DNA of 64,000 nucleotides from IMG/VR virus record IMGVR_UViG_3300021077_000115, positions 238,064 to 302,063 of that record; one strand, 5' to 3'. Each line of letters starts with the position of its first letter. Position 1 is the first letter of the stretch. Source of the stretch: a virus. The position numbers were made by a program, and so were the translations under genes. Below the pieces are notes generated by a model. It searched no databases. It had not been told where the DNA came from and saw nothing but the letters and a program-made list of their open reading frames with translations. Of this stretch, positions 15,416-48,576 are shown in pieces.

Positions 15416-15761
15416 TCCATGTATTTACGACCATCTCATAATAAAGCTTCTTGGCTAATGTTCTCGCCTTAATATCTTTTCGCATGATAAATTTAGGCTT
15501 GAACCATTGAGCTAGTTTAGTATCCTGACAATAGATTTCATATCCTCTATCACCATCTTCTATAATCTCTACTTCTAGTTCACCAAGCAAACCACGTAGT
15601 TTTATCTTTTCTTCTACAGTTAGTAATATATCAGGCCAAATATCTTCTAGAGGAACACCTATCTGTTCTAGTATGCTTTTAATAAAAAGGTTTCTCTCCT
15701 CTTCCTCTACAACCTTTTCGTCTCCTCTATCTAGATAAACCGACCGATTCATTACCCACAT
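15381..15761 (-). CDS. hypothetical protein (126 aa)
   Basis: ORF in operon orientation. It overlaps the nrdJ stop region. Confidence 0.45.
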   Translation of the reverse strand: MWVMNRSVYLDRGDEKVVEEEERNLFIKSILEQIGVPLEDIWPDILLTVEEKIKLRGLLGELEVEIIEDGDRGYEIYCQDTKLAQWFKPKFIMRKDIKARTLAKKLYYEMVVNTWSVFDQEENEND

Positions 15762-18700
15762 CCACTATATGTACACTCCTCGTTGGTACAATTACCACAG
15801 GCAGCTCCAGTCTTTCGATATGTTCGCTTGCCACAAGATGGGCACTTTTCCATAGGGACTGCGTTTTTCCTATCAAAATCTTCAATAGTAGATGTCTTAG
15901 ACTCTTCCTCTTGCTGCTCTTCTGCATAAGTTCGCAAGACACGAGCAATATTAGTTGGCAAAGAGAATATATACTGTCCGCCAATCTTATCCAACTGCTC
16001 ACAGATGAACATGATAGGAACACCATGCCTCAAGTTCATGCTGGTTGTTCTTGCTGTCAGCTCTAGGATTTGAAGATCTTTTTCGCTCAATCCAAAATAC
16101 GGGGCAATCACCAAGACCTCATACGGCTTCTTGGTACCAGGGAAGAAGCTCACTGTAACATAAGCATTTCTCGGTTCACCATTACCAAAATCAATTCGAA
16201 TCTTGTGCGTCTCTGAATCCAGAATCTTGTCACGCTTTGGAGCAAATGCCTGACCGGGCGCATCAAAGATTGGTGTAAACCAACTAAGTACATCTTGCTT
16301 CGTATACTTGGGCAATGATATACCATCTGCCGTTTCCCAATCAAAATTGCCCTGAGCTAAACTCTTAGCCTTGGCAATCTCCTTCAATTCCTTGCTGACA
16401 TCTTCCAGCTTAGAGGCGATGGCATCCCACAGATCAAATCCTTCCTTATCAAAGACTTGACTATAATGTCCGATAAGATAGTTTTCGCACTTCAGCGCCT
16501 GCTTATCGCCTGTTACCAAAACTCCATCGCGAGATCCGTCAACATAAACGGTGACTCCTTTGAGGCCATATTTCCAAGCCTCCATATAGATCTTAGAAAC
16601 AACACTATTGGGAGTTCCTGCAGGTAAATTGATAGTACTACTAATCGAATGATCGATATGCTTCTGCTCAGCAGCCTGGATCATGATTCGCTTTGTCCAG
16701 TCTACCTCATCCGAGTTAACAAAGAATTCAGGAAGTGGTGCGCTCTCATCTAGGCCGAACTTCTCTAGATATGCTCTAGCATTGTGTGAGAACTGCTTGT
16801 ACTCTTGCCATGAATCACCATTGACGTCTGTGAAGTCAACACGTACACCAACATCATTTGGATTCACCTTCTTGCGGCGAATGAAGTAGATACGGAAGAC
16901 TGGTTCAACACCCGAAGAAACATTGAAGTAAGAAAAATTGCCTAGTTTGGAAATGATAGCCACCGAACCAGTTGGGGCTTGCGTCAACATAGAAATGTTG
17001 CGCCTTCCATATATAGCCATATCAGCTAGGATGTCTGCTGGTAGGTCTTTGATGAAAGGATTGTCCTTTTCCAATTCCCAATTGAACTCTGGGAAGGGCC
17101 CACGAATTTTTGCCAACTCTACAGATGTTCTATAGGCCGTTTCTTTGAATGTTCGGTAGATTTTATCTACCATTTCAATAGCAGCATCAGAATCATACCT
17201 AATACGAAGCTGTGCTAAAGCATCGGCTAGCCCATGAGTTCCTAAGCCAGTTCTACGACCATCACGCCCGGCATCATGAAGCTTCTGCCAGATAACAATC
17301 TCCTGATCGACATCCTCTTGGGTAGTGCCAGTGTCTTTGATAACCGTTATGATCTTCTCAATCAATTCCAATTCAAGATCAACAAGGTTATCACCCATCC
17401 TTGCTTGAATAGCAACATCGGCAATGAAGCGATCGAAATCGAACTGGGCTGTTCCCTCAAATGGGTTGTTGACGTAATTCGTTAGATTCAAAGATATCAA
17501 ACGGCAACTATCGCTTGCTGAAAGAATAATCTCTGAACATGGGTTAGTTGAAACTGACTTGAATCTTGGATAGCAATGTGCTGGTAATGTTCGTACGGCG
17601 TTATTCCAGAGAACCAAACCAGGCTCTGCTGACTTGGTTGCAGAATCAACAATAGCATCCCAAACACGGCGCGCAGAAACCTTTCGGCTGATCTTCGGCG
17701 TCTTACTTTCACAAGGCCAACGAACTTCATAATCAGTTCCATCTTCAACAGCCTTGAGGAACTCATCACTCAAGCGCAAGGAGATGTTAGCTCCTGTAAC
17801 TTGAGTTAGGTCATGCTTCATGTTCGTAAACTTGAGCACATCTGGATGATGGACATCCAAAGTTATCATCAAAGCGCCACGCCTCCCGCTGTTATGAACA
17901 TAAAATCCTTCGCACCAAAATAGATGTTCTTCAGGAAGCTCTAAATCGAATGTCTCTTCAACTCCGTCCTCTGTAATTGATGATACGGTCGCCTTTATAA
18001 GCAGACCGCTCTGAGCCAGCTTTTCGCCAGCAGACTTGATCTTCAAATACGCAGTGGCCGATACAAAATGTGAGTTATCAGGTATAAAATCATATTGATT
18101 ATGAGTTACGCCAAGTGACTTTGCTTTGTATGGTGTTGTATAATTGTCTCGCTTAGAAATGAAGCGTTCATATATCTTTTCTGCAGGAAAAGTACCACCA
18201 TCAATACAGGCAACCAATGCCTCTTGTGCATGTGTTCCTGTAATCGCTACAGAGTATAAATCTCTCCACTCTTTTGATGTACGATCTTCTGTGTGAATTT
18301 TACTAATAATTCCATTTGCCATCAACATTATCTGAATATCCTTGGCAAAAGAAAATGAAGTTGTTGAAAAAGAATATCCTTTTTTGGATTTACCGTTAGT
18401 TCCATCGGCGTCAAAGAAACCTGCCAAGAATGACATTTGAATCTCTGATGAGGCTTTTAATATACTAGATGGTACCCTAATTTTGGTTGATTTTTCCTTG
18501 AGTAGTGAATTAGCCTTCAACCAATGACAAACCAACTTACTGTTAATTGTGACCTTATTAACGGCACCATCACCGGGCCTAATTGATGCATCAATACCAA
18601 ATACTCTTTTAATTATCTTACAAGCTTGTGCCTGAACCGCCGGATGTTCATGAGCACATGCTATTGAAATCAATAATGGTTCGTTGAATTTATCATACTC

Positions 18701-19678
18701 AACGCCCCCATCACCATACATTAACCCAAGGATATATGCTAAATCAGTATTTATATTACGCGGTAAATTTACATCTTCATTTAATCTATTTGAATTATTG
18801 TATTGCTTCTTTACGTATTCTGGACAAACCAGATCATCAGTTCCAACGCCAACCCTCCAAGCTCCAGGTATTAATACTACAGAGTCACCCTCTTCAAAAT
18901 CACCTAGGCGCTTTTCTATCAGGACACCATCCTCTTCTGTTAAGAATAGATGATCTTCCGACGCCCGAACAGAGAAACCATACGATGTTTGTAGTTTGTA
19001 AATCTTCTTTGAACCATTAATGAATAAATTAGAAACCCCAATAAATCCATTCTTGGTCCATACAGAATCAATACTAGGCCTTACTTCCTCAATTGGAATT
19101 AGCCCATTTCTAGTAAGAACCCTCTCGCCTTTAGCAATACACTGTCCTATCTTTCTGGTAACTTCAGAGAAGAAATCTGCAAAGCTCCATGCTCCAGTTG
19201 TTGTGCGTGCGGCATTGTTCACCGTCATCCCATCTGGGCGCAGGGATGATAAATCAAACCCAACTCCACAGCGTCTTTTATAGAGTTGGGCAAGATTGTG
19301 AGCGGTCCTAAAAATACCAGAAATTGAATCTTCTGGAGATGCTTCAACGACGCAGTTGGAAGCACTCATTGTTTGGTAGGGATTTCCTACCGCCGCCATA
19401 ACTGAACCTTGTGGTACAATGCGTCCAAATTGAGACATGGCATTGTAATATATAGCTGTTTGATTTGTGTTATCAATAGAATCATCGTATCTAGTATCAA
19501 TACGAGCAAACTCTGTAGCCAGCCTATTGTGCATACTCTCTGGAGTTGGTTCTACAATATCACCATCAGAATCACGCATTGCGTATTTGTTCAGGTATAC
19601 GCTGGCTGATATCTCCTCTCCGTTGAAGTAAGCAAGTGCTAGTTTATGGGCATCTTCGTATGAATACTTTTCCGACAT
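15752..19678 (-). CDS. nrdJ: ribonucleotide reductase class II (adenosylcobalamin-dependent NrdJ), intein-containing, with a C-terminal Cys4 zinc ribbon
   Basis: The N-terminus is YLNKYAMRDSDGDIVEPTPESMHNRLATEFARID (the class II signature LRDRYF..D..G...E). It has no ATP cone. The C-terminus is CPSCGKRTYRKTGAACGNCTNEEC. The extein junction ...RKIGQ | SGRRGALM flanks a 417-aa insertion. Confidence 0.9.
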   Translation of the reverse strand: MSEKYSYEDAHKLALAYFNGEEISASVYLNKYAMRDSDGDIVEPTPESMHNRLATEFARIDTRYDDSIDNTNQTAIYYNAMSQFGRIVPQGSVMAAVGNPYQTMSASNCVVEASPEDSISGIFRTAHNLAQLYKRRCGVGFDLSSLRPDGMTVNNAARTTTGAWSFADFFSEVTRKIGQCIAKGERVLTRNGLIPIEEVRPSIDSVWTKNGFIGVSNLFINGSKKIYKLQTSYGFSVRASEDHLFLTEEDGVLIEKRLGDFEEGDSVVLIPGAWRVGVGTDDLVCPEYVKKQYNNSNRLNEDVNLPRNINTDLAYILGLMYGDGGVEYDKFNEPLLISIACAHEHPAVQAQACKIIKRVFGIDASIRPGDGAVNKVTINSKLVCHWLKANSLLKEKSTKIRVPSSILKASSEIQMSFLAGFFDADGTNGKSKKGYSFSTTSFSFAKDIQIMLMANGIISKIHTEDRTSKEWRDLYSVAITGTHAQEALVACIDGGTFPAEKIYERFISKRDNYTTPYKAKSLGVTHNQYDFIPDNSHFVSATAYLKIKSAGEKLAQSGLLIKATVSSITEDGVEETFDLELPEEHLFWCEGFYVHNSGRRGALMITLDVHHPDVLKFTNMKHDLTQVTGANISLRLSDEFLKAVEDGTDYEVRWPCESKTPKISRKVSARRVWDAIVDSATKSAEPGLVLWNNAVRTLPAHCYPRFKSVSTNPCSEIILSASDSCRLISLNLTNYVNNPFEGTAQFDFDRFIADVAIQARMGDNLVDLELELIEKIITVIKDTGTTQEDVDQEIVIWQKLHDAGRDGRRTGLGTHGLADALAQLRIRYDSDAAIEMVDKIYRTFKETAYRTSVELAKIRGPFPEFNWELEKDNPFIKDLPADILADMAIYGRRNISMLTQAPTGSVAIISKLGNFSYFNVSSGVEPVFRIYFIRRKKVNPNDVGVRVDFTDVNGDSWQEYKQFSHNARAYLEKFGLDESAPLPEFFVNSDEVDWTKRIMIQAAEQKHIDHSISSTINLPAGTPNSVVSKIYMEAWKYGLKGVTVYVDGSRDGVLVTGDKQALKCENYLIGHYSQVFDKEGFDLWDAIASKLEDVSKELKEIAKAKSLAQGNFDWETADGISLPKYTKQDVLSWFTPIFDAPGQAFAPKRDKILDSETHKIRIDFGNGEPRNAYVTVSFFPGTKKPYEVLVIAPYFGLSEKDLQILELTARTTSMNLRHGVPIMFICEQLDKIGGQYIFSLPTNIARVLRTYAEEQQEEESKTSTIEDFDRKNAVPMEKCPSCGKRTYRKTGAACGNCTNEECTYSGCG
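17891..19141 (-). mobile_element. intein (417 aa) with a LAGLIDADG homing-endonuclease domain inside nrdJ
   Basis: It starts at Cys180 (CIAKGERVLTRNG, Hint block A). LAGLIDADG motifs are LAYILGLMYGDGGV and MSFLAGFFDADGT. It ends ...GFYVHN followed by Ser (+1) of SGRRGA. The boundaries were mapped to codons by hand (ACA codon at 19139-19141, GTT at 17891-17893). Confidence 0.8.
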
Positions 19679-19684
19679 AATTCC

Positions 19685-20344
19685 TCAAAACAAGTCTATC
19701 AATTCTCGTTTCAGCGTCTTCTTTGCTTCTGTTAATAACTTTATGCAGCTCATCCTAGAAATACTTAATCTATCGCAAATCTTACCAATAGAATAAAGGT
19801 CTCTGCGATTCTCGGATGCTCCGCCTAGTTCATAATGTAAGGTTATTACCTTACGCTGATCCTCTGGCAATTTATCCACCGCACTCCGAATCAAAGTAAC
19901 CGCTTCGTCTTTAGCAATATGATCGAGAGCACTAATCTCTCCGTCGATAATTATTGGAAGTTGAGATACTTTGTACGGTTGAACATGCTTGGCATGTTTC
20001 AGCGGCACCTTGATAGTAGAGTGGCGATTCGCCTCTCGACTAATCTTGGTTTTGATGTACTTATTTGCCCACCAGTAGAAATCGCCCTTTTCGGGCTTAT
20101 AAGTCTGCAATGCCCTATACAAAGCAATACGGCCATCTTGTTTAAGGTCTTCGTAATTTGCGAATCCCTTATATCTTCTAGTACGTGCATCAACTAAGTA
20201 TTCAAGTTCTTTGGTACATTCTGATTGAATATCTTCAAGTTCTCTTTTTAGATTGTTGCTCTTAGACTTTACACATTTCTTTCTAAGGACAACCATATTA
20301 CTCAAAAGAGCATTAATCCTATCTTGATCAATTACATTATTCAA
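19685..20344 (-). CDS. RNA polymerase sigma factor, sigma-70 family (regions 2 and 4)
   Basis: DLKQDGRIALYRALQTYKPEKGDFYWWANKYIKTKISREANRHSTIKVPLKH matches sigma-70 region 2.1-2.4/3.0 (DLiQeG.lgL..A...fdp.kG.kFstYA.wwIr.aI.R.......iriP.h). A C-terminal HTH (SIGKICDRLSISRMSCIKLLTEAKK) corresponds to region 4. Confidence 0.8.
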   Translation of the reverse strand: MNNVIDQDRINALLSNMVVLRKKCVKSKSNNLKRELEDIQSECTKELEYLVDARTRRYKGFANYEDLKQDGRIALYRALQTYKPEKGDFYWWANKYIKTKISREANRHSTIKVPLKHAKHVQPYKVSQLPIIIDGEISALDHIAKDEAVTLIRSAVDKLPEDQRKVITLHYELGGASENRRDLYSIGKICDRLSISRMSCIKLLTEAKKTLKRELIDLF

Positions 20345-20623: not shown

Positions 20624-20800
20624 TTATCTCCTAATTTCCTTGAGTGTTTTACCAAGGAGTACTAATTCAACATCATCCATCCAATTGTCTCGTACTCTTT
20701 GTTTAAAGCTCTCATCAATAACCTTAAATACCAAATACAAATCACCTGTAATTGGATCAACTTCCATTCTAATGGCTCGTGCAACAGTATCAAAGACCAT
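20624..20800 (-). CDS. small hypothetical protein (58 aa)
   Basis: Its ATG overlaps the dnaB TGA stop (ATGA). Translation MVFDTVARAIRMEVDPITGDLYLVFKVIDESFKQRVRDNWMDDVELVLLGKTLKEIRR. It is not in the ORF track because it is under 60 aa. Confidence 0.35.
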   Translation of the reverse strand: MVFDTVARAIRMEVDPITGDLYLVFKVIDESFKQRVRDNWMDDVELVLLGKTLKEIRR

Positions 20801-22251
20801 CAACTATCCTTTGCCTTATTCTTTGCCTCCTGAATTGATCTAATCAGGTCTGGTATATTGGCAGTTACATCTCCAGGAATTTCTCTCTGATCATATGGTA
20901 CATCTATAAGAGATGCATTGGCAAAATTCTTAATCAAATTACCTTGACCCAATGGACCCTTTCGATTCTTGACTACATGAATCTTCAAATCTGGAAAGCT
21001 CATCTCGTTTTGCCTTGTCTCTATTTGAATACCCAAATTTACGTGATGCATTATCAAAGATGAACGTCCCCATCGATGCATACCAACTGCACGATTCTCA
21101 TCCTTGGATCCTGTTGCGTTCCTCTTGAGATCTGTAAGCTGGGCAGCTGTAATAATTGCATTGTCATAAGCTCTTCCGAACTCATGCAATGATGCAGCTA
21201 TCCCTCCAAGCTTCAACCAATCTTGTTCTTTTGCAAGAGCCGTACTGTGCATCAAACCCATATAATCAACGACTACCACGTCTGGACGATATCGTAACAG
21301 TGCATCATGATATCGCAGCTCAACCTCTTCAATTGTAAGGTTTCGTGGGACATCTACAATGTCAAAATAATAGCCGCTTCCTTGATATGCTTTGATAAAA
21401 TCATAAGCCTTTTGTACTCTCATCTCTTCCTCACGAGATAGAGTGGCTTTGGTCAAGCCTCGCTGTGGAACATTAGCTAAGCTGGCAAGGAACCTAACAA
21501 AGCAGTCCTCATAGGGCATTTCCAGGGAGAAATAGAGGATATTGTAACCCTTCACCATTGAGGTGCTGGCAGACGACTCGATTGTATTTCCCTGAAGCCA
21601 AATCTGCTTGGCCATATTGTTAAGCAACTGCGACTTGCCGGCATTGCTCTCACCACCAATCATAATCAGCTCGCCAGGTGAAATGCCCCCAGAAACGGCA
21701 TCAATCATACTGTAGCCGGTCTTGATTTCTACGGAATCTTCGGGGTTAAGCTTGCGCGCCTCGTAAGAATCAATGAATTCAGGGATATAATCGCCGACAG
21801 GCTTTTGGGTATAGGTTCGTTCAAGCTCTATCGAGGTAATTCGGTTGATAGCCAACGATAGCTTGTTGAAATACTCCTCTGGGTTATCTGGAGAATCAGG
21901 ATCATCAGATGACGCCTGCGCACGGATATCCTCTACCGCCTGTTGTTGAAACCTCTTCTTCAACTGTTCGAGATCATAGGGATATTCGCGAGTGTCGTAT
22001 TCTAGCCCTTCTATCTCACTCCAAGCATCCTCTATATTGGCCACGAGCAGTGGATTGCCACTGTGATGTTCGATAAGGGTTCGTTTGGTAGGGGGCGATC
22101 TGAAGTGTTTGGTATAATCCAGGACTAGTTTGGCGAAACGCTGAACGTCAATATCGAACAGAGTATGATCATAACGAGAAACGAATGTGAGCGCGCTTAC
22201 CTTGTCATGTACAAGGGCTTTAAGAATCTTAAGATCTAGTTCCTCTATCAT
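20800..22251 (-). CDS. dnaB: replicative DNA helicase, DnaB family
   Basis: Walker A in the RecA-like domain is GYSMIDAVSGGISPGELIMIGGESNAGKSQLLNNMA. Walker B is DVVVVDYMGLM. The C-terminal arginine-finger region is typical of DnaB. Confidence 0.85.
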   Translation of the reverse strand: MIEELDLKILKALVHDKVSALTFVSRYDHTLFDIDVQRFAKLVLDYTKHFRSPPTKRTLIEHHSGNPLLVANIEDAWSEIEGLEYDTREYPYDLEQLKKRFQQQAVEDIRAQASSDDPDSPDNPEEYFNKLSLAINRITSIELERTYTQKPVGDYIPEFIDSYEARKLNPEDSVEIKTGYSMIDAVSGGISPGELIMIGGESNAGKSQLLNNMAKQIWLQGNTIESSASTSMVKGYNILYFSLEMPYEDCFVRFLASLANVPQRGLTKATLSREEEMRVQKAYDFIKAYQGSGYYFDIVDVPRNLTIEEVELRYHDALLRYRPDVVVVDYMGLMHSTALAKEQDWLKLGGIAASLHEFGRAYDNAIITAAQLTDLKRNATGSKDENRAVGMHRWGRSSLIMHHVNLGIQIETRQNEMSFPDLKIHVVKNRKGPLGQGNLIKNFANASLIDVPYDQREIPGDVTANIPDLIRSIQEAKNKAKDS

Positions 22252-24017
22252 AATTCTCCCTTTTTAATCATGTCTCGCATATCCTGCCCACCAATAACAG
22301 GAACCAATTTAACCACTTTCATCAAACTTTCAATACTTGCTCGCAAAGGTCCAGAGAAACTTTCCTCAACCTTCACGCTGTTGGTACAGAAGAATAGAGG
22401 TACCTTATTTTGAATTCTGGTCCTCATAATTGGCTCAAGAATGCGGCCAAATAGATCGGCGGCATTCTCACTGCCCATAAAGCGAGCATCGAACTCATCT
22501 ATTACCAAAAAGTCTATAGATAGTAATATCTCTCGCGCCTGAGATTTTACCTCTGGCGAGGAATACAGCATGATATGGATTATGTCCGTCAGATTGACAT
22601 ACAGAGCGCTGTAGCTCTTTTCGACGGCTCGCTTCAGGATGCAGCAGGAAACCATCGTATTGTGCGTTGCGATAAAATTGCGCGTAATCAAAAATAAATG
22701 AGATGGGCTATCAACCGTAAGGCATCTCATTGGCCTTGGATCAATTATAGAAACCTTAGTTATGAACCTGTGAGTTGTTCTGGTTTCCTGTGATTTTTCC
22801 AATCTTATATTTTGAAGTTTTCGAGTAATTCTACAGATTGGTAGTTTTGTAGTAAATGTTACTCGATAACGATCCTGGCATCGCTTACCATTGAGAAAGC
22901 TTTTGTTTTTATTGATTGTTGCCTTTATCCCAAAGCTCAAAATCAATTGTAAAAACCCCCTAGCTAATGGCTCAATAACAGAACAGAACTCACATAGGCC
23001 AGTATCAGTTATATGGCCATCAGTATCCATCAATCCCTGAACTAAAGCAAGTCTCTGTTCAAATGAAGAATGTAAATATTCCCAAGGTATATACTTATTC
23101 TGTATTAGCCCAAATTCTCTCAATTCTTTAGCTAATCTTCCGGTTTTTCTCTTAAACTTTCCAACAGGAATCAATTTACCAATTCTATAAAGAAAAGATT
23201 TTGATTTAGAACTAACTGATGAAGGCTTCAAAAACGCTTCATATCCAATCAGCTCTATATTATGAATAATCTCTATATCTGCAGATTCAATCGATCCCTC
23301 TCTACAAGTCCCATCACCAAGCCAGCAACCCAAAACATAAGGATCTATTAGTAGTGATTTGCTGCTGTAATTTATTGGCCTCGAACACTCAATGGAATGA
23401 TTAGATATTTTTTGCTTACCATTAACCTTTTGAGTTAGGAATATTTCCTTAGTAGTCCTTACTTCTGGAGCTGATTTATCAAGTCTGCTTTTTCTAGTAT
23501 GAGTAAGCCATAAATGATCAGCACAAGCATTTACTTTTAAACCATCATCAAACTCTAGTTCATAAGATTCTGGGCTTATCTGTATTGGGTGTAATTTTAA
23601 TACCTTACAAATATTACCATTTTCATCAAATAAAGAATCTCCTTCGCAAAGATCCTTTAGCTTGATAAATCCGGTTGGTGTTGGCAACTCGGTCTCAAGA
23701 TCTAATTGTTTACCGATTCCATGTTTACCGGCAAAGAATGCCCGCTCACCATTCTTGTAAGTCTCCTTGATGTCTTTTGTAACATCTTGATAGACTTTAC
23801 CCAGAATAGCGGGGCCTGACCAATCCGTCATGTCACGCCACCAGTAATCAACTGGTATATTGGCGTCGTAATAGCGCTGGAATGCAGTTGTAAGAGAAGC
23901 ACCAGCTGTGGTTAGTATGCCATCGTTGGATTGACTATCAAGAAGGTCACTGACGGAATCATCTAGCTTTCTTCTTGGGATGTTTAGGAATGGGTTTTGT
24001 AAATATTGGGTATCCAA
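22248..24017 (-). CDS. AAA+ P-loop ATPase (DnaC/IstB-like putative helicase loader) interrupted by an intein in the Walker A motif
   Basis: The exteins join as ...AFFAGKHGIGK | TMVSCCILK..., which reconstitutes GxxGxGKT. Walker B is FLVIDEFD. The combined extein is about 240 aa. The gene lies immediately upstream of dnaB and is translationally coupled to it. Confidence 0.65.
   Translation of the reverse strand: MDTQYLQNPFLNIPRRKLDDSVSDLLDSQSNDGILTTAGASLTTAFQRYYDANIPVDYWWRDMTDWSGPAILGKVYQDVTKDIKETYKNGERAFFAGKHGIGKQLDLETELPTPTGFIKLKDLCEGDSLFDENGNICKVLKLHPIQISPESYELEFDDGLKVNACADHLWLTHTRKSRLDKSAPEVRTTKEIFLTQKVNGKQKISNHSIECSRPINYSSKSLLIDPYVLGCWLGDGTCREGSIESADIEIIHNIELIGYEAFLKPSSVSSKSKSFLYRIGKLIPVGKFKRKTGRLAKELREFGLIQNKYIPWEYLHSSFEQRLALVQGLMDTDGHITDTGLCEFCSVIEPLARGFLQLILSFGIKATINKNKSFLNGKRCQDRYRVTFTTKLPICRITRKLQNIRLEKSQETRTTHRFITKVSIIDPRPMRCLTVDSPSHLFLITRNFIATHNTMVSCCILKRAVEKSYSALYVNLTDIIHIMLYSSPEVKSQAREILLSIDFLVIDEFDARFMGSENAADLFGRILEPIMRTRIQNKVPLFFCTNSVKVEESFSGPLRASIESLMKVVKLVPVIGGQDMRDMIKKGEL
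22659..23708 (-). mobile_element. intein (~350 aa) with a LAGLIDADG endonuclease domain in the P-loop of the AAA+ ATPase. It lacks an obvious N-terminal Cys or Ser.
   Basis: Hint-like start region LPTPTGFIKLKDLCEGDSLFDENGNICKV. LAGLIDADG-like motifs YVLGCWLGDGTC and LVQGLMDTDGHI. The C-terminus is ...NFIATHN followed by Thr (+1). The residue after GK is Gln, so the upstream boundary is uncertain and a class 3-like mechanism is possible. Confidence 0.6.
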
Positions 24018-24384
24018 ATTCTACCTCGGGAAGTACTTCGATCTTCTGTGATCTTTTCAGCAATTCACGAGCCCGCTTTCTTTCCTCTTCCGCTTTGAGC
24101 TTATGCAACTCTGCCAAATTCTTGGCTCTCATATCCTCTCGGGGATAATAACGGTCAGGCTCGGGCTCTTCTTCTAGAAAGACCTTCCCTGGCTCGCTCG
24201 ACCCCGTTGTTTGATGAGTGATCTTAATTGCCAATACATTCTTAAATGGATCCTGCACAATAAACACAGATCTATCAAACAGTTCAAGAACCATCTGCTC
24301 GTCCGTTAGCTCAATCAGCCTACCCGCCTCAATAACGTTGTTCGCACAAATGATCTTGATAACAGATCCAATCTCAATTTCCAT
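23959..24384 (-). CDS. hypothetical protein with a Lys/Arg-rich C-terminus (141 aa)
   Basis: ORF in operon orientation. Confidence 0.45.
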   Translation of the reverse strand: MEIEIGSVIKIICANNVIEAGRLIELTDEQMVLELFDRSVFIVQDPFKNVLAIKITHQTTGSSEPGKVFLEEEPEPDRYYPREDMRAKNLAELHKLKAEEERKRARELLKRSQKIEVLPEVEFGYPIFTKPIPKHPKKKAR

Positions 24385-25012
24385 CTAGTCTCCCTAAAAC
24401 ACTATCATCGAAGCCAATACTCTTCAGATCATCAAACATCTTTGTATATATCTGAAGTTCGTTATTACCAGGATCATTCTCGACAGCAATTTTAGCAAAT
24501 GCTAAATCACCATATGTACTAACATCAAGATTAAGATTATTAACCACGCTCTTACAATCCTGTGGTAATAAAGTTGATCTTGTAATCTTGGTTTCTTTAC
24601 GGAACTTCTTTTTGAATTCAAATATGAAGTTCGTTGTGAAAAAGTAAGCGATAGAACTTAAAGAAACCTTCTTTGGAACTATATACTGATCAAATACGAA
24701 ATCTATATAGTCCTTTATGGTTTGATTATCATCAACTCCTAGAAATGAAATCATTCTCTTTATACAAAATAACTCAGAGCATTTACTTGGTGGGCCGCTG
24801 TAAGAAAGAGTAAAGTCAATGCCCATGTAGTCTTTGTAGCGCTTCAATATATGGCCAAGGAAATGATGGTCTTTCCATTCCGAAATATCATCAAAACTAT
24901 ACCCGGACAATTTTGATTTGAACTTTAGCCAAGAACTATTCGGCGAGCCATCTTCTTTGAGCCCACTCACCTTTCGAACTTTAGTTGTTGCTACTTTTTT
25001 TCCTGTGGCCAT
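24374..25012 (-). CDS. hypothetical protein (212 aa)
   Basis: ORF in operon orientation. Confidence 0.45.
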   Translation of the reverse strand: MATGKKVATTKVRKVSGLKEDGSPNSSWLKFKSKLSGYSFDDISEWKDHHFLGHILKRYKDYMGIDFTLSYSGPPSKCSELFCIKRMISFLGVDDNQTIKDYIDFVFDQYIVPKKVSLSSIAYFFTTNFIFEFKKKFRKETKITRSTLLPQDCKSVVNNLNLDVSTYGDLAFAKIAVENDPGNNELQIYTKMFDDLKSIGFDDSVLGRLDGN

Positions 25013-26469
25013 GTTACATCGAACTCCGATTCGTATATCTCGCGTCTAATTTCGGCATGCTCTGTAAGATATGGAGCTTGATCTGCAAAGTCTATAATAG
25101 CCGACATGTCTTTTCCCTTGTAGGGACGAATGACTCGACCTATTCTCTGCAAAGCTCTTACAGATGATTTACCAGATCCGGCAATAACAAGTCCTGAAAG
25201 TATTGGTAGGTCAATTCCAATATCGAAGATTTTACTTGCAACCAAGCATTTGATTTTGCCAGCTTCCAATTCATCTTTAATTTTGTCACGCTGTTTTGCG
25301 CTGTCTTTTCCACTAAGAAGACCAGTTGGAACATTTTTCTTCAGCGAATCAAAAAGAACATCCCCATGTTTGATGGTGTGGAAGAGAACCAACGGCACAA
25401 AGCCTTGCTCGACCATACTTGTAGCCGCTCTCAAAATCATAGAGTTGCGTTGTTCGTTCTCTACAACGTATTTGGAATAAACCTTGGGATATTTTCCTGT
25501 TCTGAAAGGATAAGGCTTAGGAGCTAGGAATCGTATATTTGGCTGTACAAGATATCCTTGCTTAATTAATGTTTGTGCAGATATATCAACAATTATCTTA
25601 CCAAGAAATGCTTCAATTAGCATATCTGCGTTATCATCTCTCCATGGACTTGCAGACATACCGTATACGTATTCGGCTTTTATGTTTTTTGAAATAACCT
25701 GAACTGTATCACATGCCGCCAAATGGCATTCATCCATAATATGTACAGAGCTATTCAATAGCATCTCTTTGATCTTGCTAAACTTGTTAGGATCTATTTT
25801 CTTTTCAGTTTCACTAACATCATCAAGAGTGATATTCTTCTTCAGACCTAATGCCTGACCAACACTCCAGATTGTTGCGATATTTATGTTCTTTATCTCG
25901 CACTTACCGTCTCCAATGATTCCAATTTCCTCATCGAATATCTTAGAGAAGAACTCTTGCAACTGGTAAAGAAGATCTTTTCCAATTACGTAAACAATCG
26001 TTGGCTTGCCAAGCTTTGCAGTAATGAGAGCGGCGATCAGGGTCTTTCCGCCACCGGTTGCCAATCTGATGATGCCGCGCTCCGTCCCCACGGCCTGATT
26101 GGCGGCATACTCTTGGTACGGTCGAGGTTCTTTGCCAATCGTACGCAGTTTTTCAGAGACATCAATTGGAGTTGATTTTTCTATTGGCAATCTTTCGTCA
26201 ACAATTAATGGATGGATTCCCTTCTGTGAATAGAAGTCCAAAACTCTTGGAAGAAGCCCAACTGGGAATTTTCCAGATGAAGATAGCAGATGCCTCTTCC
26301 CATCCCAAGAAACGAACTCACCAAGTTCATTTACATATCCCTTATACGCAGGAGAAAATTCGGCACCAAGTATTTGAAATGACAACTCTCGATCCAAATC
26401 ACTAAGGATCTCATCATCATCTTCGTCAACAACCTTGCAGGAGTTTTGGTGCCGAATAATTGCTGTCAT
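24991..26469 (-). CDS. superfamily 2 DEAD/DEAH-box helicase (UvsW / RAD25-like)
   Basis: Motif I is PRPYQEYAANQA...LATGGGKTLIAAL. Motif II is HIMDECHLA (DECH). Motif VI is ALQRIGRVIRP. Confidence 0.8.
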   Translation of the reverse strand: MTAIIRHQNSCKVVDEDDDEILSDLDRELSFQILGAEFSPAYKGYVNELGEFVSWDGKRHLLSSSGKFPVGLLPRVLDFYSQKGIHPLIVDERLPIEKSTPIDVSEKLRTIGKEPRPYQEYAANQAVGTERGIIRLATGGGKTLIAALITAKLGKPTIVYVIGKDLLYQLQEFFSKIFDEEIGIIGDGKCEIKNINIATIWSVGQALGLKKNITLDDVSETEKKIDPNKFSKIKEMLLNSSVHIMDECHLAACDTVQVISKNIKAEYVYGMSASPWRDDNADMLIEAFLGKIIVDISAQTLIKQGYLVQPNIRFLAPKPYPFRTGKYPKVYSKYVVENEQRNSMILRAATSMVEQGFVPLVLFHTIKHGDVLFDSLKKNVPTGLLSGKDSAKQRDKIKDELEAGKIKCLVASKIFDIGIDLPILSGLVIAGSGKSSVRALQRIGRVIRPYKGKDMSAIIDFADQAPYLTEHAEIRREIYESEFDVTWPQEKK

Positions 26470-27005
26470 TCAACCTTCAAAACTTGAACAGCTTCTGTTG
26501 AAAGACCTCTACTTCCAAATAAACAATATAGGCGATCCATATCTTTTTGATCATCAGAAGAAACTGAACCAAAACATCCAAAGAATTCTGGATCTGGTAA
26601 TATCATGCAAACATTATCTTCTATATCATCAATTCCAAATACTCTATTTGATTCTATTTGTTTTTTCAAAGAAGTGCTGCACACGATATTACGATCTTGA
26701 ATTAGATTGAAGTTATACTTATTCATTTTCTTCTCAAGACCTTCATTGATGTAATCATCTATGATAAACTTCAAAAGTTTATTAGCCATCTCAACTATAC
26801 CAAAGATATCAGGATCTATAAGCCTCATCATCAACCTATCTCTGACATCAACTTTTCGCTTACAAATACTACCATCTGCTTGTAGTAAATAATAAGTTGT
26901 TTCATCAGCTTCATAGACAGGTTGATAGTAATTGGATAGCCTCCCTAAACAATCACACACAAATATGCGCTGCAGGCTATCAATCGAGCCATGTTTGAAT
27001 TCCAT
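26466..27005 (-). CDS. hypothetical protein (179 aa)
   Basis: ORF whose start overlaps the stop of the tubulin-like gene. Confidence 0.45.
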   Translation of the reverse strand: MEFKHGSIDSLQRIFVCDCLGRLSNYYQPVYEADETTYYLLQADGSICKRKVDVRDRLMMRLIDPDIFGIVEMANKLLKFIIDDYINEGLEKKMNKYNFNLIQDRNIVCSTSLKKQIESNRVFGIDDIEDNVCMILPDPEFFGCFGSVSSDDQKDMDRLYCLFGSRGLSTEAVQVLKVE

Positions 27006-28399
27006 TACTTCTTTCTCCGGTCATGAACGGCAGCGTTGTGTAGCTTGGTAAAGGAAGATGCCTTCTGCTGAATCCTGCGCTTGATTTCCTCAACCTGATT
27101 GGTGCTCTCTTCTCCAACATCAACCTTAATGGTCATGTTGCGCTCATCGTCCTTGCGCTGAGCAGCTCCCATTTTCAACTGGGCCTCGGTCTTCAATTGA
27201 TTAACTCTTTCCTCTGGTAATCCAAGACCGGAGAACATTGAATAGACCTTTACGCAGTCATCCTCAGACTCTTCTTTGTAAATACCATGGAAGGGCACAA
27301 CGCCTTCACACGTATCAAGAATCATCGATTGTGCAAAGTGTAGGCTGGAACTTGGAATTTTGTTCCACACCCTATCAGGGGCCACAAGCATGAATCCAGC
27401 ATATCTAGCCTGACGAATATTGAATCCTGAAGCCAGCAAATTACCCTTGAGAGACTCTAGAATTGCTGAGGCAATTGCCATCTCATCTTCATAATCCGGG
27501 ACAGTGGTAACGCCATATACCGTGAAGCCTTTGCCGTCCATAAATAGCTTACCAAACTCAGAGGAATCAAGAACCTTGACTCCTTCATCTGGGCGGCGGC
27601 TCATTGTATTGAAAACATCCAAAGGCTCTACAATAGCCTTATTCGAAACCTGGAAGAAGTTGAATGGACCAACATCACTATACAATGACTCAATCTTTGC
27701 GTTATCAACAGCAATGATGTTGTGTATCTTGCCAGCGGTAAAGAGCTTCGTAAACGTGCTTAGTGTCTGCCATGCATTGTGCTTCAGCTGAGCATCTTCG
27801 CTGGCTTTTGGTAGAACCGTAAGTACAGCAATTGGCTTTTCTAGCTGCGACAGAATATCAACGACAACTGGCACAGAACCAGCACCAGAACCACCACCAA
27901 GTGATGTGCAGAAAATGAATACTTCTACATCGCTCAAATGACGCTGAATAAGTTGATTGATAGCTGCTCGATAGGCATCCGCAGCATCATGGCCAATGGT
28001 CAGATCTTTTGCAGCGCCTCCAAGACCAAAGTCAAGCAATAGCTTTTGCCGCTCTGGAAGCTTGATATTCTCCAAATCCTGAGGGGCTGTGTTCATGCAA
28101 ACCGCTGGGTAACCAAGAGCAAAGAATTGTTCTGCCAAGCGGCTTCCTGCCTGACCAGACCCAACAATTCCAAAGCGCAGGCTTCGTTGCTGCTCCTCTA
28201 CAATACGTGGTGGCATAACCTCCTCCTTTACCTCCTCTTTTGTCTCGTTGAGCTTGGCAAGTTCCTTTGCTTCTTCTGCTCTCTTCTGTGCGGCTCGCGC
28301 CTTCAGAGCGGCCAATTTTTCTTCATCAACTTGTGGTGTTTCGATATCGTTCACTATTTCCTCTCGATTTAATTTTTCAATCTTTGATTGAGTTACCAT
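27005..28399 (-). CDS. tubulin/FtsZ-superfamily GTPase (phage PhuZ/TubZ/FtsZ-like) with a ~75-aa charged N-terminal extension and a basic C-terminal tail
   Basis: The T1 loop is FGIVGSGQAGSRLAEQF. The tubulin signature is FIFCTSLGGGSGAGSVPVV (GGGTGSG variant). An FtsZ-like T7 region is LTVLPKASEDAQLKHNAWQ...HNIIAVDNAKIE. The N-terminal ~75 aa are K/E-rich and look like a coiled coil. Confidence 0.7.
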   Translation of the reverse strand: MVTQSKIEKLNREEIVNDIETPQVDEEKLAALKARAAQKRAEEAKELAKLNETKEEVKEEVMPPRIVEEQQRSLRFGIVGSGQAGSRLAEQFFALGYPAVCMNTAPQDLENIKLPERQKLLLDFGLGGAAKDLTIGHDAADAYRAAINQLIQRHLSDVEVFIFCTSLGGGSGAGSVPVVVDILSQLEKPIAVLTVLPKASEDAQLKHNAWQTLSTFTKLFTAGKIHNIIAVDNAKIESLYSDVGPFNFFQVSNKAIVEPLDVFNTMSRRPDEGVKVLDSSEFGKLFMDGKGFTVYGVTTVPDYEDEMAIASAILESLKGNLLASGFNIRQARYAGFMLVAPDRVWNKIPSSSLHFAQSMILDTCEGVVPFHGIYKEESEDDCVKVYSMFSGLGLPEERVNQLKTEAQLKMGAAQRKDDERNMTIKVDVGEESTNQVEEIKRRIQQKASSFTKLHNAAVHDRRKK

Positions 28400-28413: not shown

Positions 28414-29373
28414 TTACATATTTAGCACATATTTATTGCTAACGTACCACTGGCAAGTTTGGGCAATCCCGTCTCTGAATTTGAATTGCGGATTCCATCC
28501 AAGAGTCTTTATCTTATCATTAGACATAGCTAATCTACGATCAAAATTACTCTCGACGTGTTTGATTAACTCATGACCTTTACCAATGGTATTACAAATC
28601 ATCTGAACAACTTCCAGATTGCTAAATTCCTGCTTAGAAGTTATATTGTATATCTCTCTATCAACCCCATTATCAATGATGCTAAATAACGCAGAGCATG
28701 TATCAAATACATGTGTCCACTCTTTAGTATGAGCACCCGAATCATTGATGTTTATATTTTCTTCACTTATATATCTATCATTCAATATACAATCAATAAT
28801 TCTTGGTATTAGATTAGATGCAGTCTGCCATGGACCATAGTTATCACTCAGACGAACAATATTGTAGTGCAAACCTGATAGCCCATAAAAACTAGAAGCC
28901 TTCACCAACAACTCACCAGCCGCTTTTGTAGCAGCAAAGGTTCCTCGCGGATTTGGAGTATCTAATTCATTATATGGGCTATCGTTCTCAGACTTTAGTT
29001 CGCCATATATATTATTGTCGCTGACATAAACCAATCTAGCATCTATTTTCATGCATTCATTGATAATATTTTGCGTTCCAACAAGATTACTACTTACCAT
29101 GGAGGCTTCATCTTTTGATTCTGCGGCTCCATGGATAACAATATCTGGGCGTTCCTTCTCAAATATTACATGTAGGGTATGAGCATCTCTAACATCTGCA
29201 ATATAAAACGAATGATCGGTATTTACGTAGATGTTATGAATAATATGAGAGTCTCGCACCCTATCCATACTAGAAATGGTGTAGGGCAGTTTCGAATAGA
29301 AAACTTGCCGAATGAAGTTCCCGAAAATAAACCCCCCCGACCCCGTGATCAACAATCGCCTTCTTTTAGCCAT
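28414..29373 (-). CDS. RmlB-like (dTDP-glucose 4,6-dehydratase family) extended SDR protein with substituted catalytic residues. Possibly a pseudo-enzyme.
   Basis: It aligns by eye to RmlB along its whole length (LLITGSGGFIFGN / IVIHGAAESKDEAS / PRGTFAATKAAGELLVKA...NYGP / DRRLAMSNDKIKTLGWNPQFKFRDGIAQTCQWYVSN). The YxxxK catalytic Tyr is replaced by Phe (FAATK). The TDE triad is replaced by SDN (VSDNNIYG). The third Gly of GxxGxxG is replaced by Phe. Confidence 0.65.
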   Translation of the reverse strand: MAKRRRLLITGSGGFIFGNFIRQVFYSKLPYTISSMDRVRDSHIIHNIYVNTDHSFYIADVRDAHTLHVIFEKERPDIVIHGAAESKDEASMVSSNLVGTQNIINECMKIDARLVYVSDNNIYGELKSENDSPYNELDTPNPRGTFAATKAAGELLVKASSFYGLSGLHYNIVRLSDNYGPWQTASNLIPRIIDCILNDRYISEENININDSGAHTKEWTHVFDTCSALFSIIDNGVDREIYNITSKQEFSNLEVVQMICNTIGKGHELIKHVESNFDRRLAMSNDKIKTLGWNPQFKFRDGIAQTCQWYVSNKYVLNM

Positions 29374-48574: not shown

Positions 48575-48576
48575 AT

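Follow-up and report, generated by a model that had tools for sequence, protein, structure and literature searches.

Phage-encoded tubulins are at present understood through two paradigms, that is PhuZ spindles, which position the chimallin nucleus, and TubZRC systems, which partition plasmid prophages. The locus described here raises the question of where a phage GTPase belongs that has a TubZ-like fold and apparently neither set of partners, and what its task in the infected cell may be. The gene (27005..28399, ATG start, 464 aa) lies in a 64-kb stretch of viral DNA, called the window below, from a genome of more than 200 kb; like all other features located in this text, it is found on the minus strand. 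An initial annotation, made from the sequence alone, presented the product as a phage-encoded tubulin/FtsZ homologue, placed in a replication module and different from PhuZ, and this part of the interpretation stands. Its T7 label had to be given up, and no support was obtained for its coiled coil, its argument about filament architecture or its adaptor candidates.

Gene, fold and subfamily

The open reading frame is as annotated, and every string originally quoted from it (GIVGSGQAGSRL, GGGSGAGS, NIIAVDNAKIE and the C-terminal RRKK) is found in the protein. Homology to tubulin/FtsZ, which had been called bona fide, is borne out by Pfam (PF00091 Tubulin, 51.2 bits vs a cutoff of 33, E=2.5e-13, residues 81-237), by the best PDB sequence match (E=3e-14) and by fold (Foldseek E~1e-23). 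The AF2 model (pLDDT 78.7 overall, 80-98 in the core) contains the two-domain tubulin fold. Foldseek returned 1,102 PDB matches at E<=1e-3, the 50 best of which are TubZ, FtsZ or CetZ throughout; the protein is thus inside the tubulin/FtsZ fold, with TubZ ranked first. Chance can be dismissed as a source of these superfamily matches.

Sequence, profile and fold comparisons alike put plasmid TubZ nearest, FtsZ/CetZ next and PhuZ far behind. Foldseek ranks 1-22 are occupied by TubZ-Bt or B. cereus TubZ (E=1e-23 to 6e-21), hhalign against TubZ-Bt gives 98.8% (E=8e-17), and the best PDB sequence matches are RepX/TubZ and the TubZ of phage c-st. For FtsZ the hhalign value is 96% (E=2e-9), and similarity to FtsZ/CetZ amounts to E=1e-8 to 1e-10 in sequence and 1e-18 to 1e-20 in fold. 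The type of the C-terminal domain was judged by Pfam PF22453 and PF21493. TubZ-like_C scores 22.1 bits in the window protein, below the cutoff of 26 (E=1.6e-4), and exceeds this cutoff in the relatives P0013 (26.9), P0085 (28.4), P0264 (34.9) and P0281 (38.0 bits); PF21493 TubZ_C is a precomputed annotation on many homologues. It can be said that the window tubulin is an uncharacterised variant of the known TubZ kind.

Likeness to TubZ-Bt, pXO1 RepX and B. cereus TubZ is the best structural and profile match. Common to the Bacillus plasmid TubZs and the window tubulin are a long helix near the C-terminus and, behind it, a flexible basic tail that ends in K/R, as well as T6 (DNxK) and T7 (D-x-x-[DE]) motifs; the C-domain, too, is probably of TubZ type. 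Nevertheless, identity is only 19-25%, the N-terminal extension has about 72 aa as against about 22 aa, and the plasmid genes reside in a par/rep locus, whereas the window gene resides in a phage replication operon without tubR or tubC nearby. The TubZ of phage c-st (TubZRC plus TubY) is likewise phage-encoded and TubZ-like (PDB sequence E=3e-11), but its alignment with the window tubulin extends over no more than the GTPase domain and a portion of the C-domain. Together with TubR and a centromere, it partitions a plasmid prophage of Clostridium botulinum (PMC7950403), whereas neither is adjacent to the window tubulin. Another huge phage, the Bacillus megaphage G, encodes gp138 (“putative FtsZ-like cell division protein”), which has a basic tail and matches the family at E=2e-25; it is, however, a protein of 376 aa without the N-extension and in a different neighbourhood. 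The gene directly upstream of gp138 encodes gp137 (98 aa, wHTH-like in sequence), so that phage G has the canonical order of tubR and tubZ. The same family with full-length architecture is represented in UniProt by A0A6J5RW92, “FtsZ Cell division GTPase” of an uncultured Caudovirales phage (452 aa, 47% identity, Foldseek E=3e-54), where the annotation is automatic; the searchable literature yielded no study of this protein.

Nucleotide-binding and catalytic motifs

Conservation was read from an alignment (A1) of 34 sequences reaching down to 52% identity. In the T1 phosphate-binding loop GIVGSGQAGSRL (residues 77-88, 28136..28171) G77, S81, G82 and G85 are invariant, as is the core GSGQAG (residues 80-85). 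The T4 tubulin signature SLGGGSGAGS (27875..27904) is invariant from S166 to S175, with GGGSGAGS at residues 168-175, and the residues of the T2 motif NTAxQDL do not vary across the 34 sequences. The T1 loop and the signature variant GGGSGAGS had therefore been recognised correctly in the initial annotation. Its reading of NIIAVDNAKIE as a T7/synergy loop was wrong: by the Pfam boundary, the alignments and the model, this segment (residues 227-237, 27689..27721) is the S6 strand with T6/H6, the region of the base-contact Asn. It closes the Pfam GTPase domain (residues 81-237); its counterparts are NDNTQ in TubZ-Bt, LIDNAKL in RepX and IPNDKLL in E. coli FtsZ; and the AF2 model shows a strand (227-232) followed by a helix (233-239), both before H7 at 248-266. 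The T7/H8 catalytic motif is KVLD278SSE281FGK284 (27548..27577, beginning at K275), in which D278 and K284 never vary and E281 is kept in at least 90% of the sequences. It is paired by hhalign (LD278ssE281fgK) with YD266psD269liK of TubZ-Bt, and forms in the model the loop after H7 and the beginning of helix 279-287.

Inteins with homing endonucleases typically occupy indispensable sites of important genes. In the relatives L007 and L006 an intein is inserted in T1 exactly at GSGQAG^S, and three distant relatives (P0264, P0269, P0283) have T4 inteins inside the signature motif; those at T1 (L007) and at T4 (all three) carry homing endonucleases. Because such elements sit exactly there, the T1 and T4 GTP-binding loops are considered to be under constraint. 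Both appear to be intein insertion sites previously unreported in a cytoskeletal GTPase; a literature search, with subscription journals outside its coverage, gave no specific description of the family or of inteins in FtsZ/tubulin.

Terminal extensions

The core is preceded by an extension of residues 1-72 (28184..28399), delimited by alignment A1 and the AF2 model. A K/E-rich, coiled-coil-like extension of ~75 aa had been proposed, of which the extension itself stands (~72 aa), but the K/E part proves to be a short variable linker (28220-28264). A coiled coil is unlikely because this segment varies in length (2-25 aa) and is poorly conserved, with a majority frequency of 0.16 in the per-region statistics. 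On its N-terminal side stand an acidic motif at the tip, EEIVNDIE (28340-28363), and the conserved, basic helix EKLAALKARAAQK (28265-28321); on its C-terminal side VMPPRIVE (28196-28219) is conserved. The elements kept among homologues are EEIVNDI, KLAALKA and MPPRIVE; L32, A34, K39 and P63 reach at least 90% conservation, and a helix at 26-56 is modelled by AF2 at pLDDT 58-78.

At the other end, the AF2 model contains a long H11-like helix (residues 396-423, 27131..27214), and the Foldseek alignment with TubZ-Bt, of about 400 columns, includes the C-terminal helix of the latter. Then comes a conserved basic tail (residues 424-464, 27008..27130; IKVDV ... IKRRIQQKASSFTKLH ... DRRKK). The initial annotation had counted ~65 aa of basic tail ending in RRKK; the basic character and the RRKK end are right, but part of the length is structured, and since the TubZ-type helix H11 (396-423) is included in that count, the unstructured tail is about 41 aa. 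Majority frequency in the tail is 0.67 vs 0.72-0.74 in the core, the spacer is fixed at 15-16 aa, and K425, D427, I443, S448, F450, D460, R461, R462 and K463 are conserved in alignment A1. Distant relatives keep the tail motif [S/T]-Phi-G-[K/R]-Phi and a basic cluster. The pLDDT of the tail is low, and it is therefore not docked in cis.

The C-terminal tail of TubZ links the filament to complexes of TubR with the centromere (overview in PMC7950403). The net charge of the tail is +4 in the window tubulin, +6 in TubZ-Bt (ending ...NPFKKR) and +6 in phage G gp138. The proposal that the tails imply a distinct filament architecture finds no support at this point, as a long C-terminal helix with a basic, K/R-ending tail is the classical TubZ layout. 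Homology of the tail to that of TubZ-Bt was considered separately; the local alignment score was matched by 11 of 500 shuffles, which is no more than suggestive, and it was not used.

Distribution of the family

More than 1,212 homologues were found, and 303 representatives at E<=1e-30. In IMG/VR the family occurs on at least 110 contigs, the longest of 480 kb. Outside viruses it was noticed on one 4.5-kb contig among 185,579 species genomes; the family is phage-restricted. Within phages it is a core gene of a huge-phage clade (about 200-480 kb) whose members appear to use phage sigma factors and replication proteins of T4 type. Among 50,697 deposited phage genomes, megablast with the 4 kb around the gene gave no match, no cultured member of the clade was found, and phage G gp138 was the sole family match (25% identity, E=3e-17). 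No relevant tubulin or PhuZ assignment was found in the supplements of Al-Shayeb 2020.

Genomic neighbourhood

The order sugar epimerase, tubulin, UvsW-like helicase, o212, DnaC-like loader and DnaB is shared by related loci (n=86); it is retained in 63-84 of them, and also in a 312-kb contig with a much more distant tubulin homologue. Upstream lies an NAD-dependent sugar epimerase/dehydratase-like gene (28414..29373; Pfam Epimerase, E=2.7e-30), separated from the tubulin by 14 nt in the window. The downstream neighbour, a UvsW-like SF2 helicase (24991..26469; phrog_16 DNA helicase, E=1e-69), is present in 77 of the 86 loci, and ResIII, Helicase_C and UvsW_N domains are seen in the helicases of relatives. 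Further on are o212 (24374-25012; conserved in 68/86 loci), o141 (23959-24384; detectable in 10/86), a DnaC-like loader with an intein (22248-24017; 66/86) and the DnaB helicase (20800-22251; 63/86), a stretch that gave PHROG matches. In this part of the replication operon (20800..25012) start and stop codons overlap throughout, and all the way from the epimerase to DnaB the coding regions overlap or nearly abut. The location within the replication module, between the UvsW-like helicase and a glycan island with the epimerase, had been given correctly. A scan for promoters and terminators at 19.5-34.5 kb produced counts not above the shuffled expectation and was therefore uninformative.

Between the tubulin and the helicase the window has a non-conserved 179-aa ORF (26466..27005) which overlaps the tubulin stop (ATGA) and occupies a variable insertion hotspot; in related loci the insert is occupied by ORFs for a lysozyme, Sm-like proteins or GIY-YIG endonucleases. 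The fixed synteny could reflect the gene order of one phage clade and not functional coupling. Distant relatives in other contexts (L090, L092) adjoin glycosyltransferases, and in a single case (P0239) the tubulin is fused to Glycos_transf_1, which could be a gene-calling read-through because an internal Met stands at the junction and only one fusion is known. Judged from sequence, the conservation of the epimerase, the fusion and the glycan neighbours hint at a different association than replication.

Search for partition partners

It might be assumed that the protein serves canonical type III (TubZRC) partition, the phage being a low-copy plasmid prophage or pseudolysogen whose TubR-like adaptor and centromere are situated in another part of its genome (>200 kb). 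The nearest characterised relatives are indeed partition TubZs, those of Bacillus plasmids and of the plasmid prophage c-st (PMC7950403), the basic C-terminal tail resembles that of TubZ-Bt, and the window brings only 64 kb of the genome into view. In known systems, however, tubR stands immediately upstream of tubZ, as in the pBtoxis-like plasmid, and here this position is taken by the epimerase, so the arrangement is not that of a TubZ operon; the epimerase is upstream in 84 of the 86 loci, with a gap of no more than 60 nt in 50 of the 84. TubR-Bt and phage G gp137, used as tblastn queries, matched neither the window nor the 1.43 Mb of related loci. Scans for direct and inverted repeats at 20-34 kb, where iterons or a centromere were looked for, gave two-copy matches at chance level only, and TRF detected no repeat array anywhere in the window. 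The regions examined showed neither an integrase nor lysogeny genes, and the tubulin itself is inside a replication operon.

No support was obtained for the ORFs that the initial annotation had put forward as centromere-binding adaptors. The 179-aa ORF, rejected as an adaptor, has a homologue in 1 of the 86 loci (L007, 30% identity) and no match in Pfam, PHROG or NCBIfam. The well-conserved o212 (68/86) is placed beyond the helicase, among the replication genes; its AF2 model (pLDDT 87) is all-helical, without a wHTH, and no Pfam, PDB-sequence or PDB-fold match was obtained (best E=0.73). For o141 (10/86) there was no match in Pfam, NCBIfam or PDB. On this evidence canonical partition is considered unlikely, although it is the most probable of the alternatives.

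Proposed function

We lean towards a TubR-independent, cytomotive filament of TubZ type that is coupled to phage DNA replication. The observations behind it are the fold, the catalytic motifs, the conservation of core and tails, the restriction to phages, the synteny, and the lack of an adjacent TubR or iterons; polymerisation, treadmilling, what the tails do, and a cargo of DNA or replisome are parts of the model that we infer. The tubulin would be co-expressed with the UvsW-like helicase, the helicase loader and DnaB from the tightly packed operon, and would, with GTP, form filaments that are polar and probably treadmill. The globular core (residues 73-395) is predicted to provide the GTPase and the longitudinal contacts: T1-T6 would bind GTP, and D278/E281 in T7 of the next subunit would activate hydrolysis. 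H11 with the basic tail (396-464), and the N-terminal motifs on their flexible linker, may act as docking peptides for a cargo adaptor and/or the adjacent subunits. Such filaments would most likely serve to place, distribute or segregate the very large phage genomes during replication, or a replication factory, within the host, and they would do so without a classical adjacent TubR/tubC module.

A more ambitious version is offered tentatively. Among phage tubulins the protein may represent a third functional class: a TubZ derivative that has no TubR, is independent of chimallin and became a core replication-module gene of a globally distributed huge-phage clade, and whose conserved terminal peptides would tether treadmilling filaments directly to the replisome, DNA or a phage partner, giving a replication factory without a shell.

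Other explanations

In the literature a tubulin of a huge or jumbo phage is often equated with PhuZ and a nucleus, and the genome here is huge. PhuZ of the Chimalliviridae is likewise a tubulin-superfamily GTPase of large phages with a functionally important C-terminal tail, and a weak match to phrog_4733 (PhuZ) was found (E=1e-5, residues 139-219 only). That the protein forms a spindle of the kind known from phiKZ-like jumbo phages, where the nucleus inside its chimallin shell is centred and rotated, is nevertheless very improbable. PhuZ has about 315-330 aa and is accompanied by chimallin and multisubunit RNAPs, and similarity to it is marginal: phiKZ PhuZ is non-significant by tblastn (E~0.5) and gives 72% in hhalign (E=3e-5), viral PhuZ models score E~1e-11 to 1e-12 in Foldseek where TubZ reaches 1e-23, and PhuZ is absent from the 50 best PDB fold matches. 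The phiKZ PhuZ tail is acidic (ending ...DVDDQATSSGLVFD), whereas the tail of the window tubulin is basic and ends in DRRKK; the distinction from PhuZ drawn at the outset is well founded. Checked for as a chimallin-like shell gene, phiKZ chimallin (gp54) had no tblastn match in the window or in 1.43 Mb of the relatives' +/-10-kb flanks, no multisubunit RNAP was present among the scanned window ORFs, and sigma-70-like genes are conserved in the clade.

Very unlikely, too, is an FtsZ mimic which co-assembles or competes with the host's FtsZ or with FtsZ anchors, so that division is blocked or the cell grows large enough for a huge virion. The JGI and UniProt label on homologues is “cell division GTPase FtsZ”, FtsZ ranks second among the relatives, FtsZ and archaeal CetZ have the GTPase fold and the T1-T7 logic in common with the window tubulin, and a conserved C-terminal peptide with a basic cluster loosely recalls the FtsZ peptide and variable region. 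However, the NCBIfam FtsZ equivalog TIGR00065 scores 43.6 bits vs a cutoff of 295.2, which places the protein outside FtsZ proper, and its C-terminal domain is probably of TubZ type. The C-terminal peptide differs from that of FtsZ/CetZ; mimicry of the FtsZ peptide was considered and rejected, the tail having no P-x-F-L-[RK]. Co-polymerisation with FtsZ is unlikely because identity is about 20%.

A function in the glycan island, with the filament as a scaffold on which, in place of DNA, sugar-modifying enzymes or their products are organised or transported, could be read from the epimerase as the most conserved neighbour (84/86), from the glycosyltransferases next to L090 and L092 and from the P0239 fusion, but it is given very little credence, as adjacency may merely mark the boundary of two conserved modules, the idea is without precedent and the window epimerase has lost the catalytic Tyr (FAATK).

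Significance

There is apparently a large, unstudied lineage of phage tubulins which has a TubZ-like fold, shows the partners of neither paradigm in the regions searched and is tied to T4-like replication genes. The conserved terminal peptides are concrete handles on the cargo. The lineage also cautions against a common shortcut, which takes any tubulin of a jumbo phage as a sign of PhuZ and a nucleus. If the TubZ-type filaments do organise replication, the phage cytoskeleton would be far more widespread in huge phages than the nucleus-forming family, and very large phage genomes in general would be served by cytoskeletal organisation, which would then be no peculiarity of nucleus-forming phages.

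Assignment to the TubZ type

The tubulin gene (27005-28399, minus strand) starts with ATG and encodes 464 aa, with GIVGSGQAGSRL at residues 77-88, GGGSGAGS at residues 168-175, NIIAVDNAKIE at residues 227-237 and RRKK at the C-terminal end; ORF position, strand, length and these strings were found exactly as the initial annotation had given them, and its claim of a tubulin/FtsZ homologue was also borne out. The Pfam Tubulin/FtsZ GTPase domain was matched with 51.2 bits against a curated threshold of 33 (E=2.5e-13). The Pfam TubZ-like C-terminal domain scored 22.1 bits (threshold 26), relatives exceed that threshold (26.9-38 bits), and a match to PF21493 'TubZ_C' is precomputed for many homologues. 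Among PDB sequences the best match was RepX/TubZ of pXO1 (E=3e-14, residues 71-404), followed by TubZ of phage c-st (E=3e-11) and CetZ/FtsZ (E=1e-8 to 1e-10). An AlphaFold2 model built from a 34-sequence alignment has a confident core (pLDDT 80-98, residues 68-420), and in the Foldseek comparison with the PDB ranks 1-22 were taken by TubZ of B. thuringiensis and B. cereus (E=1e-23 to 6e-21, alignments of about 400 columns), FtsZ and CetZ came next (1e-20 to 1e-18) and PhuZ was absent from the top 50 matches. The order of the sequence and fold searches was repeated by hhalign, a profile-to-sequence comparison of the family with single references: TubZ-Bt (98.8%, E=8e-17), E. coli FtsZ (96%, E=2e-9; a reference serving for the motif map only) and phiKZ PhuZ (72%, E=3e-5). 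On these sequence and model comparisons the protein is a true member of the tubulin-superfamily GTPases and belongs to the TubZ type. FtsZ identity was rejected, as the FtsZ equivalog model failed widely (43.6 vs 295.2 bits) and TubZ ranks ahead of FtsZ; PhuZ identity was rejected on the hhalign value and the Foldseek top 50, in agreement with the difference from PhuZ-like proteins noticed earlier.

Reviews divide phage tubulins into two groups, the TubZ of c-st, whose partners are TubR and a centromere, and PhuZ (PMC7950403); Iyer et al. refer to 'two distinct representatives' of the family among jumbo phages. A 2026 jumbo-phage review treats PhuZ alone, and metagenomic papers tend to read any phage tubulin as PhuZ plus a nucleus. 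Neither a description of the present lineage nor a study of the family was found in literature searches, whose coverage leaves out most subscription journals.

GTPase motifs and terminal regions

NIIAVDNAKIE had been taken for the T7/synergy loop, a placement with which alignments and model disagree. The Pfam GTPase match stops at residue 237, so that this string closes the N-terminal GTPase domain; it is aligned to 'NDNTQ' of TubZ-Bt, 'LIDNAKL' of RepX and 'IPNDKLL' of FtsZ, and in the model it forms a strand (227-232) and a short helix upstream of core helix H7 (248-266). Because of the domain end, the alignments and the position before H7, it is better regarded as the T6/base-contact region. 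By conservation and hhalign, the T7/H8 motif is K275-V-L-D278-S-S-E281-F-G-K284 (nt 27548-27577, minus strand). The 34-sequence alignment shows no variation at D278, at K284 or in the residues of T1, T2 (NTAxQDL), T3, T4 and T5, and a conservation of at least 90% at E281; hhalign pairs D278 and E281 with D266 and D269 of TubZ-Bt, D269A being the classical hydrolysis-deficient TubZ mutant. Judged by its residues, the catalytic machinery is complete.

Conservation of the extensions was measured over 34 homologues (52-92% identity). By alignment and per-region conservation the N-terminal 72 residues comprise four parts. An acidic tip (EEIVNDI) of moderate conservation comes first, then a basic amphipathic helix, KLAALKARxAxK, which is conserved (at least 90% at L32, A34 and K39). 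A K/E/A-rich linker of 2-25 residues follows, poorly conserved with a majority frequency of 0.16, and a conserved MPPRIVE motif lies immediately ahead of strand S1. Owing to its variable length and poor conservation the K/E-rich segment appears to be a flexible spacer and not a conserved structural element, and the coiled-coil-like extension proposed earlier was not upheld. At the C-terminal end a long helix (396-423), corresponding to TubZ helix H11, leads into a 41-residue tail of net charge +4 with a spacer of fixed length (15-16 residues), conserved almost as the core (0.67 vs 0.72-0.74), above all at K425, D427, I443, S448, F450 and D460-R461-R462-K463. The pLDDT of the tail is low, therefore no docking in cis is predicted. 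The basic tail ending in RRKK is thus present as described, but the distinct architecture attributed to it did not stand: the tails of TubZ-Bt (...NPFKKR, charge +6) and phage G gp138 (charge +6) are basic too, whereas the tail tip of phiKZ PhuZ is acidic, which makes the basic tail a TubZ-type feature. A C-terminal peptide of the form '[S/T]-Phi-G-[K/R]-Phi plus basic cluster' is retained in far more distant, core-only relatives, the N-termini of which are very different (0 to about 260 aa); two of these begin with CxxC...CxxC and one is a fusion with a glycosyltransferase.

Distribution of the family and inteins

The word-indexed search returned more than 1,212 homologues, the best 120 of which are all full length (436-492 aa, 49-96% identity) and lie on contigs reaching 454 kb. 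In the exhaustive profile search, covering 1.84 billion representatives, 4,793 matches were obtained at E<=1e-3, 1,027 at E<=1e-10 and 303 at E<=1e-30, the whole architecture being kept in ~45 clusters at the 50% identity level. IMG/VR contigs with a family member number at least 110, and many of them span 200-480 kb. Close relatives are absent from deposited phage genomes, where Bacillus megaphage G gp138 is the sole match (25% identity); plasmid matches are Bacillota TubZ only (24-27% identity), and BFVD holds one member, UniProt A0A6J5RW92, auto-annotated 'FtsZ cell division GTPase'. Among prokaryotes (one genome each, 185,579 species) the sole match was a 4.5-kb contig. The family is phage-restricted, environmental and uncultured. 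The 4.5-kb contig (L006, JBBACM010000090.1), binned into a 'Candidatus Paceibacterota' MAG, carries the epimerase and an intein-containing tubulin in phage order and is most likely a piece of a huge-phage genome that was wrongly binned with a CPR organism; P0129, a homologue labelled Pacearchaeota yet located on a 463-kb contig, is likewise read as phage.

Inteins were found in phage tubulin genes at two independent sites. A relative with 80% identity (L007:8504-11293, IMGVR_UViG_3300014205_006828) encodes a 930-aa protein with a canonical T1-loop intein at GSGQAG^S, as does L006; the intein starts with Cys, ends with His-Asn followed by Ser (GSGQAG^C...THN^S) and has Intein_splicing, Hom_end and LAGLIDADG domains. 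In the distant relatives P0264, P0269 and P0283 inteins occupy the T4 signature at GGGG^[T/S]G (GGGG^C...HN^[T/S]G), and in the exhaustive profile search several other proteins of 800-980 aa also gave a split match. Inteins usually occupy those functional sites of important genes that are conserved best, and since they lodge here in T1 and T4, this supports the view that GTP binding by the tubulin matters to the phage. No report of inteins in FtsZ, tubulin or TubZ was found in literature searches. The clade appears to be rich in inteins in general: the ribonucleotide reductase of the window (15752-19678, minus strand; 1308 aa, endonuclease PHROG match at residues 302-485) and the DnaC-like loader (22248-24017, minus strand; 589 aa) look intein-interrupted, the reductase of locus L004 has Intein_splicing and LAGLIDADG domains, and matches of the loader to 'terminase' PHROGs probably reflect shared intein sequence.

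Gene neighbourhood

The window is phage-like in its one-strand layout, a single strand carrying almost all genes, and in its gene content: a T4-type baseplate wedge protein, a DnaB-like helicase, a DnaC-like loader, a ribonucleotide reductase, a UvsW-like helicase and, upstream of the tubulin gene, a run of sugar-nucleotide enzyme genes. Three metabolic or translation genes lie at 1349-2941 (+), 3618-4652 (-) and 13448-14251 (-); the CCA-adding/poly(A) polymerase-like nucleotidyltransferase with an HD domain, the GMP reductase/IMPDH-family enzyme and the M24 methionine aminopeptidase belong to the additional translation and nucleotide-metabolism functions that huge phages typically carry. Two very large ORFs (45575-55374, minus strand), of 999 aa with a dockerin-like repeat and of 2265 aa with a ConA-like lectin domain, adjoin the baseplate-wedge-like protein (55386-58643, 1085 aa) and are presumably tail-fibre or host-recognition proteins.

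From the epimerase to DnaB the coding gaps are 14, -1, -4, -22, -11, -59 and -4 nt, and because coding regions overlap or almost abut, a single transcription unit is implied. Across 86 related loci the order is epimerase (84 loci), tubulin, UvsW-like helicase (77), the 212-aa ORF o212 (68), DnaC-like loader (66), DnaB (63) and sigma-like factor (52), counts below 86 mostly reflecting contig ends; the location between glycan island and UvsW-like helicase, in the replication module, is a kept feature, and on a 312-kb contig a far more distant homologue again has the glycan island on one side and the UvsW-like helicase, followed by DnaB, on the other. Epimerase and tubulin are separated by <=60 nt in 50 of 84 loci, tubulin and helicase by <=100 nt in 18 of 77; apart from epimerase and helicase no gene is a universal neighbour. 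The tubulin-helicase interval (26466-27005 in the window) is an insertion hotspot of 0-4.2 kb with contents unrelated between sublineages: 29 loci have a GH25-like lysozyme there, 21 have small Sm-like proteins that are paralogous, 13 have GIY-YIG homing endonucleases (on either side of the tubulin), and there are many singletons. The 179-aa ORF, formerly a candidate adaptor, is such an occupant with a homologue in a single locus of the 86, which speaks against that role.

The sigma-70-like factor (19685-20344, minus strand; Sigma70_r2 and r4) ends the replication module, and its conservation suggests that the clade has no multisubunit RNAP of its own and, unlike Chimalliviridae, relies on the core of the host RNA polymerase, which it would redirect. 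The window epimerase (28414-29373, minus strand) has FAATK at the SDR catalytic YxxxK position and may be catalytically impaired; most orthologues of related loci keep the Tyr (for instance YSASK in 37, YSATK in 16).

Proposed mechanism and alternatives

The proposed mechanism is based on the TubZ-like fold, the completeness of the GTPase and T7 motifs, the conservation of the terminal peptides, phage restriction and an operon shared with replication genes, with neither adjacent TubR or tubC nor a PhuZ or chimallin signature. The protein would assemble in a GTP-dependent manner into polar filaments, in which D278 and E281 of the next subunit would trigger GTP hydrolysis; H11, the tail and the N-terminal motifs could act as docking peptides, and the cargo may be the replicating phage genome or replication factory. 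A filament-forming TubZ-type GTPase is very probable; the full statement, with DNA or replisome as cargo, is favoured only slightly.

By descent the tubulin is TubZ-like, its mechanism is probably TubZ-like as well, and the likeliest alternative is a canonical TubZRC partition system with partners encoded elsewhere in the genome. In phage G (L087:4692-6119) a 98-aa protein with a wHTH-like sequence, gp137, lies directly upstream of gp138, a layout that suggests a canonical tubR-tubZ pair, whereas the window tubulin is preceded by the epimerase; the published phage G annotation makes no mention of such a pair. Two defining features of TubZRC, adjacent tubR and centromere, are missing beside the window tubulin, which differs also in its family-specific conserved terminal motifs. 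The centromere-binding adaptor expected nearby did not emerge: TubR-Bt and gp137 queries gave no match in the window or across the 1.43 Mb of flanks from related loci, and no iteron array was found near the gene or in the whole 64 kb. Canonical partition is accordingly considered unlikely. The clade-specific o212 (24374-25012, minus strand), with a basic N-terminus and encoded between the UvsW-like helicase and the helicase loader, has a confident all-helical AlphaFold2 model (pLDDT 87) and no match in Pfam, NCBIfam, PDB sequences or PDB folds; it may represent an accessory replication protein of novel fold.

Nucleus positioning in the manner of PhuZ is much less probable; the phiKZ gp54 (chimallin) query returned nothing in the window and the 1.43 Mb of flanks, sequence that covers part of each genome. 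Interference with host division is improbable to the same degree. A role tied to the adjacent glycan island, least probable of all, draws on the very conserved epimerase neighbour, on glycan genes repeatedly beside the tubulin, also in distant homologues of otherwise different context that adjoin glycosyltransferases or epimerases (L090:9643-14606; L092:1-7818), and on one Glycos_transf_1-tubulin fusion (P0239, 812 aa); the association may reflect either a border between modules or a functional connection. For the preferred TubZ-type filament, the superfamily assignment itself is ordinary, and the interest lies in a large uncharacterised clade, in its missing partners, in the coupling to replication genes and in the inteins.
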